This document shows positions 16,678 through 33,262 of a stretch of 64,000 nucleotides of DNA, piece after piece. The notes under the pieces are model-generated. The model was not told where the DNA came from, made no database searches, and saw only the letters and a program-made list of their open reading frames with translations. The translations under genes were made by a program, and so were the position numbers. Source of the stretch: a virus (Duplodnaviria > Caudoviricetes); IMG/VR virus record IMGVR_UViG_3300019378_000951, positions 1 to 64,000 of that record. One strand, given 5' to 3'. The first letter of the stretch is position 1. Every line of letters begins with the position of its first letter.

Positions 16678-16906
16678 CTGTATTGTTATTCTTACAATTT
16701 CTTGTAAGCACAGACTATATCTTCACCATCTCTGGTGCTTCCCACTTCCACTTAGTTAAATAAGTGTACTCTAATCCCTTATTAACGGTTTCGATAGTCG
16801 TTGAACCTTCCTAATATTAAGCTTGGCTGCTGATTGTCCCAGTGGGAGTTTCCAGCAATTCAAGAAGTTTTCATTTGCATATCACTATGCAACGGGACTC
16901 TATTGA
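16678..16906 (-). mobile_element. ORF-less group I intron (229 nt) in terL
   Basis: P1 GGAU/GUCC; AAUUGCUGG...AAUCAGCAG; P7 GACUA/UAGUC; terminal G; splicing restores Walker B PLIWIDE. Confidence 0.92.
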
Positions 16907-19530: not shown

Positions 19531-19857
19531 TTAAAATTTGATATTTCTTAAGAAATTATCTAATTCTCTTTCCATAGTACTTTCTAATTTTACTTTTAAT
19601 ATATCTCCATTTTCTCTTAAATCAACAGTTTTATTATATGGATCTATTACTGCATTTCTTGTAGACATTTTCATGTATTCAGACATTTCTTTTACATTAT
19701 TTGATTGTTGAGTTATATATTTAGCAACTTCATTAAATTTAACATCTAATATTGTAGATTCAGTTAATACTTGTTGTGCTGTCATATCTTTATATCCAGC
19801 TTGTTCTTTTAATATATTTGTCATATATGCATTATTATGTGATGGAAATAATACCCA
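19531..19857 (-). CDS. Prohead protease, exon 2
   Basis: WVLFPSHNNAY completes the catalytic D-x-V-x-x-P-S motif. Confidence 0.88.
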   Translation of the reverse strand, partial: WVLFPSHNNAYMTNILKEQAGYKDMTAQQVLTESTILDVKFNEVAKYITQQSNNVKEMSEYMKMSTRNAVIDPYNKTVDLRENGDILKVKLESTMERELDNFLRNIKF

Positions 19858-20043
19858 CAGTTTTGTTAATCTAGACATCTCTGCCTAGCTCAGACTATCG
19901 CACATCCCATTTTAGGGATTCATCTCATTTAGTCGTTCAGCGTGGATTTTCATCCTTCGCCCTTGTCGTCCATAAAGGAGGTCCAAGTCAATTAGAGACA
20001 ATTTTTCCATATAATATTTCTATTATAGGCGACCATGGTGTTA
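19858..20043 (-). mobile_element. Minimal ORF-less group I intron (186 nt) in prohead protease
   Basis: P1 CGAU/GUCG; P2 with GAAA loop; P7 GACUA/UAGUC; P8 AUCCC/GGGAU; P9 CUAGGCA/UGUCUAG; terminal G. Confidence 0.9.
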
Positions 20044-20529
20044 ATCGTAAGTTATAATGTATAATTTTCCATCTATTCTATCATATGCTCCTTCTTTTCT
20101 AGCAACTCCACCTAAACCTCTCATAGAGAATGCCATTTGCATACCTTGTCTACATAATCCCCTAAAATCATCTCCTGCGTGGGTTCTAGCCGATTCAACT
20201 ACACCTTTAAGTAAATTCCCTTCAAAGTGCATTTCAGTTATTATATGAGATATTCTAGTTTGATCTATGTAAGTTTGTCTCTTAATATCTTCGCTTAGGG
20301 GATGTCCACATTCTCCAACAAGAGTTTTCATTTTAAGTTGTTCTTGTATTCTAGGTGCTTGTATTGCTCCTAATAAAGATGCTTTACTGTATATACGACC
20401 ATTTCTATTTGGAGCTTCTGCTTCTTGTAATATAGTTTCTATTATAGTAACTTCTGCAGTATCTCTTAATATTTTTGGTTTTGCAGTGAAAGCCGATTCA
20501 GATATTAATATACCATCAAATTTTTCCAT
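20044..20529 (-). CDS. Prohead protease (T4 gp21-like), exon 1
   Basis: NRNGRIY, GECGHP, ISHII, FSMRGLG, IITYD. Confidence 0.88.
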
Positions 20530-32034: not shown

Positions 32035-33262
32035 CATAAATGTTTTAATATGATTCGCTACATCATATCACACTATATATTTCTATATAGATCAGACTAT
32101 ATCTTAACTATTTCTAGTTTGCCATATTTCCATTCGCTTGAATGTACTCTACTCCCTTATTAACGGTTTCGATAGTCGTTGAACTACTTACTATTTTTTC
32201 TATATATGATTCAAGATTTTTAAAACAATCATGGTGAATTCTAAAAAGTTTTATATTATTAACTTCACAATATTCATTTTTCATTTTGTCATGTAATTTC
32301 AATCTCTCAAATGATTCGTCTGTATAATAAGAATCTTTTTCAAAATGCTGCTTTCCATCATACTCTATTAAATATTTTAATGAGTCGTTTTCGTTTAATA
32401 TTGCAAAGTCATATCTAAGCTTATAATTGCTATTAACGGAACTTACTAAATTATCAAAAGTATATTCTCTTTGATACTTTATACACATATCCTCTAATTT
32501 TTTGGCTATTCGTGTCTCTGCGATACTATTATCTTTGCAATAAGGACACCTTCTTCCTCTCCTAAACATATTAGGTGTCACTAAATATGTGTTATTACAT
32601 ATTTTATGAGTTACTTCCATTTTTTCATCGATTCCAATATAATCTCCTAATATATAATCATTTAAATCTGAAAAATGTGATATTGTTTCCATATATTCTT
32701 CTTTAGTATTACGTTTTTTATCCCCTCGTATATCATTAGCACATTTAGGGCATCTTTTACCATTTTTGAAATTATTATAAGTTACAGGATATTCAGTTCC
32801 ACACTTATTGTGTTTTATATTAATATGTGTATCTTCATTTTTATATATTTCATTTGGTAAAACTGTATAGCCTTTTGATTCTATATCTTTAAATACTTCT
32901 ACTTGATCTAACTTTAATTTTTCAGCGATGGCATTTTTAGCACATTCATGACATTTGTGCTTAGATTTTTTAAAATTATATGGAGTAGTCTTCCATCTAT
33001 AATTACAAGGTTTGTGTATAAACTCAGTTTTTGTATTTTGCCCTTTATACTCACCAATCATTTCAAAATCTTTCAATTCTTTCATATAGTTTTCAAATTC
33101 TTTACGGCTTTTTTCTTTTCTTGATTCATATATTTTCATATAACATAAACACTCCTATCTCATTATCGTATATAAGAATGTTTATTAAAAATAATAAATA
33201 GCTGCTGATTGTCCAAATTGGAGTTTCCAGCAATTAATGGCATTTTACATCACCAAAAGTCT
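32035..33262 (-). mobile_element. Group I intron in RNAP beta-C gene, with homing endonuclease
   Basis: P1 AUCGCU/GGUGAU; AAUUGCUGG...AAUCAGCAG; P7 GACUA/UAGUC; terminal G; splicing restores DDKIA-RISDSE. Confidence 0.9.
32114..33139 (-). CDS. Intron-encoded endonuclease (zinc-ribbon repeats plus Vsr/DUF559-like domain)
   Basis: Three H-x-x-C...CxxC repeats; LRYDF...IEYDGKQHF; 3' end overlaps the intron core (SSTTIE). Confidence 0.85.
   Translation of the reverse strand: MKIYESRKEKSRKEFENYMKELKDFEMIGEYKGQNTKTEFIHKPCNYRWKTTPYNFKKSKHKCHECAKNAIAEKLKLDQVEVFKDIESKGYTVLPNEIYKNEDTHINIKHNKCGTEYPVTYNNFKNGKRCPKCANDIRGDKKRNTKEEYMETISHFSDLNDYILGDYIGIDEKMEVTHKICNNTYLVTPNMFRRGRRCPYCKDNSIAETRIAKKLEDMCIKYQREYTFDNLVSSVNSNYKLRYDFAILNENDSLKYLIEYDGKQHFEKDSYYTDESFERLKLHDKMKNEYCEVNNIKLFRIHHDCFKNLESYIEKIVSSSTTIETVNKGVEYIQANGNMAN

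Follow-up and report, generated by a model that had tools for sequence, protein, structure and literature searches.

The prohead protease gene in the window, the whole 64,000-nt stretch of DNA that was analysed, very probably carries a genuine ORF-less group I intron of 186 nt, which would be removed from the pre-mRNA of an AR9-like jumbo phage by the two-step pathway. The original prediction had placed such an intron at positions 19858-20043 with the junctions GAU/UAAC (5') and CUG/UGG (3'; the slash marks the splice site), and both the coordinates and the junctions turned out to be right. The element is located on the minus strand and reads from 20043 (5' end) to 19858 (3' end). The splice sites are 20044/20043 (5') and 19858/19857 (3'), and intron position n is window position 20044 - n. 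The source of the window is an IMG/VR virus record, a metagenomic contig of 216,390 nt with a completeness of 84% according to CheckV. The coordinates of all features are listed in the table.

Table. Features of the 186-nt intron, its host gene and the terL introns of phage MarsHill. Positions refer to the window unless a locus is named.
Feature	Position	Strand	Evidence
Group I intron, 186 nt	19858..20043	-	Exact junction, RF00028 full-model alignment, R1/R2 core scores
Prohead (head-maturation) protease 5' exon, MEKFDG.. to ..YIITYD	20044..20529	-	Pfam/PHROG match, Goe21 alignment
Protease 3' exon, WVLFPSH.. to stop codon	19531..19857	-	Matches Goe21 residues 164-264, E 1e-19
P1, exon -4..-1 and intron 1-2 with intron 9-14	20030..20047	-	RNAfold, exon plus 5' region
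P2 hairpin, intron 15-37, 9 bp, one bulged U, GAAA tetraloop	20007..20029	-	RNAfold; second 5' hairpin of RF00028
P3 5' strand, intron 43-49	19995..20001	-	Pairs with 19920-19926
P4-P5, intron 57-82	19962..19987	-	Family pairing
P6/P6a, intron 84-104, GAAA tetraloop	19940..19960	-	Family covariation
P7 5' strand in R element, intron 108-114	19930..19936	-	Pairs with 19892-19897
P3 3' strand, intron 118-124	19920..19926	-	3 nt from P7
P8 hairpin, intron 125-140, 5 bp, 6-nt loop	19904..19919	-	Family covariation
P7 3' strand in S element, intron 147-152	19892..19897	-	Motif search, family alignment
P9 hairpin, intron 156-173, 7 bp, GAGA tetraloop	19871..19888	-	RNAfold; P9 of RF00028
3' tail, intron 174-186, ends with omega-G (19858)	19858..19870	-	J7/9 comparison
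MarsHill terL group I introns	L143 970-1096 (127 nt), 1111-1267 (157 nt), 1338-1496 (159 nt)		Exon-level check

The ORF upstream of the insert encodes a prohead protease of the T4 gp21 type (Pfam Peptidase_S77, 2e-13; phrog_207, 1e-21). The nearest named relatives of this protease are found in the Bacillus phages AR9, PBS1 and Goe21, in Listeria phage LPJP1 and in Staphylococcus jumbo phages, and judged by sequence the source of the window is an AR9-like jumbo phage. For AR9-like phages, prohead protease genes split by introns have already been reported (10.1101/2020.12.14.422802). We assigned MEKFDG.. as the likely start by aligning the N-termini of the Goe21 and LPJP1 proteins. The 5' exon is 54% identical to the Goe21 protease and its end coincides with Goe21 D163. 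A BLASTP comparison revealed that the end of exon 1 (..GKLYIITYD) and the start of exon 2 (WVLFPSHNNAY..) abut at D163/W164 of the uninterrupted Goe21 protein with zero residues lost or gained. The same D/W abutment is present in the uninterrupted LPJP1 protease (..CCYDWVVIPSH..), and the closest metagenomic relative (locus L139, 53% identity) reads ..LTYDWVIHPSH.. and carries no insert, so that intron-less alleles of the insertion site exist in the closest protease relatives. As all three uninterrupted homologues are continuous at this site, removing exactly 186 nt restores a conserved block. The features expected of group I splice sites are present as well, namely a U(-1) in a U.G wobble, a terminal omega-G and an exactly restored reading frame. 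Furthermore, a UAA stop codon begins at the first intron base and the upstream protease ORF reads into it. Unspliced RNA therefore stops there, and the full-length protease depends on splicing.

It could be argued that no splicing takes place at all and that the protease is either split into two ORFs, the second one of 115 aa starting at an AUG inside P9 (window 19878), or a pseudogene with a decayed insertion. From the ATG at 19876-19878 an ORF reads on in the frame of exon 2, and gene callers would give two ORFs, as in the homologous case MW202674. Nevertheless, we consider this highly improbable: all homologues are continuous across the conserved block YDWVxxPSH in which the insert lies, each exon is intact and has an open frame, the insert scores fully as a member of a ribozyme family that covaries, and the head protease is essential in tailed phages. 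Even less credible is that the 186 nt are bypassed by the ribosome as in T4 gene 60, or that they represent an assembly artefact, and nothing specific was found in favour of either. In gene 60 a stop codon follows directly after the take-off codon, as it does here, but the take-off and landing codons are unmatched in our case (GAU versus UGG). In addition, 186 nt far exceeds the known hop of 50 nt (10.1101/2022.08.31.505936). An artefact is hard to reconcile with a conserved ribozyme family on more than 100 independent contigs.

A group I intron is also what the fold of the insert indicates, and the helices P3 to P9 named in the original prediction are all present, with P3 extending to 7 bp and forming a pseudoknot with P7. 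At the 5' splice site the exon sequence ..CGAU/ pairs with intron positions 11-14, and U(-1).G11 forms the wobble. The layout of P1 and P2, obtained with RNAfold from exon plus 5' region, is the same in the window intron and in seven relatives from tape-measure genes, and P2 resembles the P2 of an AR9 RNAP intron (BLASTN). By inspection, the P1 loop (positions 3-8) contains a CCA that is complementary to the UGG at the start of exon 2, so that a P10 of 3 bp could form. P4 consists of 4 bp (CUUG/CAAG, 57-60 with 79-82) and is flanked by A-rich J4/5 and J5/4 segments, and P5 pairs 63-67 with 73-77, five positions that include one C.C mismatch. In P7, positions 108 and 110-114 pair with 147-152, including G110-C151 and the closing pair A108-U152, and C109 is bulged; the R and S elements align to the RF00028 consensus. 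G110-C151 is presumably the G-C pair that would bind guanosine. P7 and the 3' strand of P3 are separated by AAU only (3 nt), which leaves no P7.1/P7.2. RNAfold recovers the nested helices P2, P3, P4, P5, P6 and P8 (z = -2.85).

At the 3' end, the two bases preceding omega-G can pair with J7/9 to form P9.0. A comparison by eye of the window intron and the seven relatives revealed that position 4 of J7/9 and omega-2 are paired in six of the eight introns (G-C, U-A three times, C-G, A-U) and mismatched in two, and this covariation supports both P9.0 and the assignment of the 3' splice site. In the most likely course of splicing, a free guanosine at the P7 G-C pair would attack the phosphate after U(-1), which P1 would hold as U.G wobble. 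In the second step omega-G would occupy the same site and the 3' OH of exon 1 would attack the 3' splice site, which may be positioned by P9.0 together with the 3-bp P10. Ligation would then join ..YD to WV...

Three GNRA loops (L2, L6a and L9) occupy positions that usually form stabilising tertiary contacts, and they probably brace a minimal core of P1, P2, P3-P8, P4-P6, P7 and P9 that is devoid of peripheral domains. In the window intron GAAA forms L2 and the loop of P8 looks like a GAAA-receptor motif, and where P2 is missing in the family, L8 is in most cases a plain GNRA loop. The loop pattern across the window intron, the tape-measure set and the P2-less members would fit a tertiary contact between P2 and P8. 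The weak points of the structure are the four exon base pairs in P1, the 3-bp P10, the 4-bp P4 and the C.C mismatch in P5, and therefore efficient splicing may need high Mg2+ or a protein.

Taken one step further, these weak points would suggest that the element is a group I intron by descent and not autonomous: the trimmed periphery would make splicing need a phage or host protein, and the intron would fail as a minimal model in vitro. Protein-dependent group I introns such as yeast bI3 are well known (PMC2813881), and the family to which the window intron belongs has no characterised member in cultured phages and only four GenBank records. Against this, three GNRA loops have been retained at the usual contact positions, the core helices are kept under covariation, and the many introns of different types in essential genes of this phage would be easier to sustain if they were self-splicing. 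We consider dependence on a protein unlikely, and prefer an intron that would be capable of catalysing its own removal.

The hand-drawn structure was tested on 61 non-redundant cores, which MAFFT had aligned blind to structure. In this alignment 97.3% of the cells were paired, in comparison to 38-49% with the partners slid, and compensatory changes were present in 18 of the 31 pairs, located in P3, P5, P6 and P8; none of 500 shuffles matched the observed pairing and covariation values. In detail, P3 showed compensatory changes in four of its seven pairs with 98.8% of cells paired, P6/P6a was paired to 100% with changes in four of five pairs, and all pairs of P5 (four) and P8 (five) covaried. 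P4 was paired to 100% with U-A/U-G variation. P7 was invariant in the 61 sequences, partly as the search pattern had fixed it, although the closing A-U pair was also invariant and its U falls outside the pattern. For the purposes of covariation P4 and P7 count as invariant, and are neither supported nor contradicted.

Family membership was confirmed with covariance models. The family model R1 scores the window core with 97.1 bits, and the leave-one-out model R2, built from 60 relatives without the window, recovers the core at 19888-20001 with 95.2 bits (E 7.5e-20, model positions 1-111), within the range of 75-124 bits that the members themselves reach on R2. Shuffling the window sequence gives an expected count of 0.00 for the core motif. 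Detection by Rfam was less straightforward. RF00028 gave no match for the window intron at the curated cut-off of 50 bits in scans of the 64 kb or of the whole genome, and an Rfam search of 500 nt gave none at E <= 10. The search with the intron alone (203 nt) yielded 22.1 bits with an E value of 7e-4 over the full model and with the same helix assignment. The cmsearch proposed as a check of the original prediction hence gave a match for the isolated intron that is below the cut-off and absent from the larger scans. RF00028 is known to under-represent phage introns (PMC11878797), and none of 17 family loci reached the Rfam cut-off, although AR9 introns did reach it. The missed cut-off is a property of one model and not a defining feature of the group I class. 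The claim that this is a group I intron whose core is complete from P1 to P9 is upheld by the exact junction, U(-1), omega-G, covariation and an RF00028 alignment that is below threshold but significant.

The window intron is one more, ordinary representative of a compact type of phage intron that forms a large family. A search of IMG/VR with a 20-base R..P3'..S pattern retrieved at least 119 contigs, the flanks of which share one conserved core, and R2 found 133 copies in 99 loci, several loci having 3-4 copies. Contigs with 3-4 copies within a few kilobases (loci L033, L035, L095, L070, L014 and L021) suggest intron-dense structural gene clusters in uncultured phages. Only four records of GenBank phages carry the family, MW202674, Roseobacter phage CRP-118 and Desulfovibrio phage 7757/SRB7757 among them. 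In MW202674.1, an uncultured podovirus, a relative of 220 nt (L001 2497-2716) splits a P22-like coat gene, as indicated by BLASTN, reading frame and annotation. The annotation of this record divides the coat gene into two CDSs and places a 'hypothetical protein' inside the intron, which is likely a mis-annotation. Altogether, family members split essential structural genes for protease, capsid and tape measure. It is possible, if somewhat doubtful, that the family represents an undescribed and abundant clade of compact phage introns which is related to the IA type but lacks P7.1/P7.2, resides for the most part in the head and tail genes of uncultured phages and escapes Rfam at the cut-off, and that the window copy, with its GNRA loops on P2, P6a and P9, might self-splice as a bare 186-nt model similar to Azoarcus with a different core.

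In the window's own genome no family member other than the 186-nt intron is strong. R1 has 16 further matches there, which score 16-28 bits and include IA2-like introns with P7.1/P7.2 in terL and RNAP genes. RF00028 matches this genome at 14 places and exceeds the curated cut-off at 10 of these, so that the genome is rich in group I introns. The terL intron (window 16678-16906, minus strand) is 229 nt long, ORF-less, contains P7.1/P7.2 and splits the terminase at W-I/D-E in Walker B; the spliced ORF encodes 681 aa. At the gathering score, Rfam did not report this intron in the window. Two further observations concern other parts of the same genome. The 3' half of an IA2-like group I intron is located at about 32073-33235 (minus strand; RF00028 30.7 bits at 32073-32231), directly downstream of an endonuclease-like ORF. 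Beyond the window, at about 90028-93704, six RF00028 matches over the cut-off and one weaker match are packed into 3.7 kb, and they extend over 198-229 nt from P1 to P9. The 186-nt intron itself contains no endonuclease gene, and its spread must therefore use recombination, a trans-acting endonuclease or reverse splicing.

The original prediction also implied that 186 nt is exceptionally short, and this did not hold. Within the family the window intron is the shortest of 42 members, the next being about 193-196 nt, with boundaries that are heuristic, taken from family end motifs and wrong in some cases (e.g. L092). Splice sites deduced from P1 pairing and open frames alone are far too ambiguous. 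One member of about 193-196 nt lies in a major head protein gene (L119), with a junction that profile coordinates confirm only roughly. A candidate of ~165 nt (L103) was rejected by eye because of a probable endonuclease ORF in its P9. Similar sizes are found outside the family: RF00028 matches in the same genome have P1-P9 spans of 198-252 nt, several of them 198-208 nt, and one RF00028 match in AR9 spans 194 nt.

Clearly shorter introns were found in Staphylococcus jumbo phage MarsHill, in which a short R..S pattern detected ten compact cores, three of them inside the terminase gene (MW248466.1 58269-58795, corresponding to L143 970-1496). The three terL introns are separated by micro-exons of 14 and 70 nt, and with all three removed the gene gives a stop-free reading of 543 aa, the fetched locus ending before the gene does. 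The spliced MarsHill terL can be aligned with its spliced counterpart from the window with no gap in the region of the junctions. Two of the introns score 47.0 and 45.1 bits on RF00028 and are closer to that model than the window intron, and all three reach 29-37 bits on R2 over the full model. In GenBank, the gene is annotated as two separate terL CDSs; the authors described terL as impossible to reconstruct and listed the prohead protease among the intron-disrupted genes of such phages (10.1101/2020.12.14.422802). Mini-introns were also looked for in PALS_2 and in the virion RNAP beta gene of MarsHill, and none were found. Degenerate group I introns of only 56-81 nt are known from fungi, one of which was reported to splice in vitro (PMC3160393). 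The literature on the smallest or shortest group I introns and on length catalogues (GISSD, 2025 database) gave no usable minimum length. The original prediction named many shorter active introns already catalogued as a refutation; as far as the existence of shorter introns goes this largely applies, but for proven activity and for cataloguing it does not. Therefore, 186 nt is small, yet no record.

Two by-products of this analysis are the most useful: compact phage introns are shown to form a large family that is under-annotated, and the terminase gene of MarsHill has been reconstructed. The practical value is one of annotation, as the family splits essential structural genes and is missed by Rfam at the curated threshold. 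Missed introns lead to truncated or 'hypothetical' ORFs from gene callers, as in the coat gene of MW202674 and the terminase gene of MarsHill. In the window, gene callers would list the ORF that starts in the P9 loop (19531-19878, minus strand, in frame with exon 2) as a hypothetical protein of its own. With its 186 nt, its full set of standard helices and its three GNRA loops, the intron is also a reasonable candidate where RNA engineering calls for a small self-splicing scaffold, albeit not a uniquely small one.

The closest relatives of the window intron are the introns in tape-measure genes (L037, L039, L048, L052, L092, L096 and L121), which are part of the R1/R2 family. They share the P1 design U/UAAC.. 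with the guide after a loop of 5-6 nt, a P2 directly after P1, a near-identical P3-P8 core, the absence of P7.1/P7.2 and a short tail ending ..UG/ with a covarying P9.0. In contrast to the window intron they are 201-212 nt long, have a loop of 17-22 nt at L9 instead of the GNRA tetraloop, a G+C-rich P2 with an asymmetric internal loop and no GNRA loop, a GNRA L8 and another host gene. Their junction is fixed by the uninterrupted protein of Javan630 (..YTMLDNLKLGYGGT..), and removing the introns restores ..MLDNLKLGYGGT.. exactly as in this protein. An alternative reading of 175-186 nt, in which P2 is taken as P1, is ruled out by the same protein.

The phage introns of the IA2 type (T4 td, Twort orf142, AR9 RNAP and introns in the same genome) resemble the window intron in their R and S elements and in the J3/4-P4 region. 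However, P7 and the 3' strand of P3 are about 60-90 nt apart in AR9 and in the window's terL intron, compared to the 3 nt mentioned above, and in the AR9 locus R2 finds nothing at E <= 1e-3. Lacking P7.1/P7.2, the window intron is therefore not filed as IA2. The MarsHill terL introns have in common with it a core of 102-111 nt without P7.1/P7.2, the absence of an ORF and a host gene that serves head assembly in an AR9-like jumbo phage, but they have no P2, the 127-nt one also has no P9, and their sequence is only distantly related.

The intron in the pre-tRNA-Ile of Azoarcus sp. BH72 presumably has the same minimal topology (P1-P2, P3-P8, P4-P6, P7 and P9), and we take it to share the absence of large peripheral domains and the GNRA loops on P2 and P9. 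This likeness to Azoarcus and IC3 is one of topology, and the window intron has an additional P6a capped by a GNRA loop. The Azoarcus intron belongs to subgroup IC3 and is 205 nt long (PMC3895272), and the window intron is, as predicted, shorter, by 19 nt. It is located in a protein-coding phage gene and not in a tRNA anticodon loop, and its R and S elements are of the phage type common to AR9-like introns.
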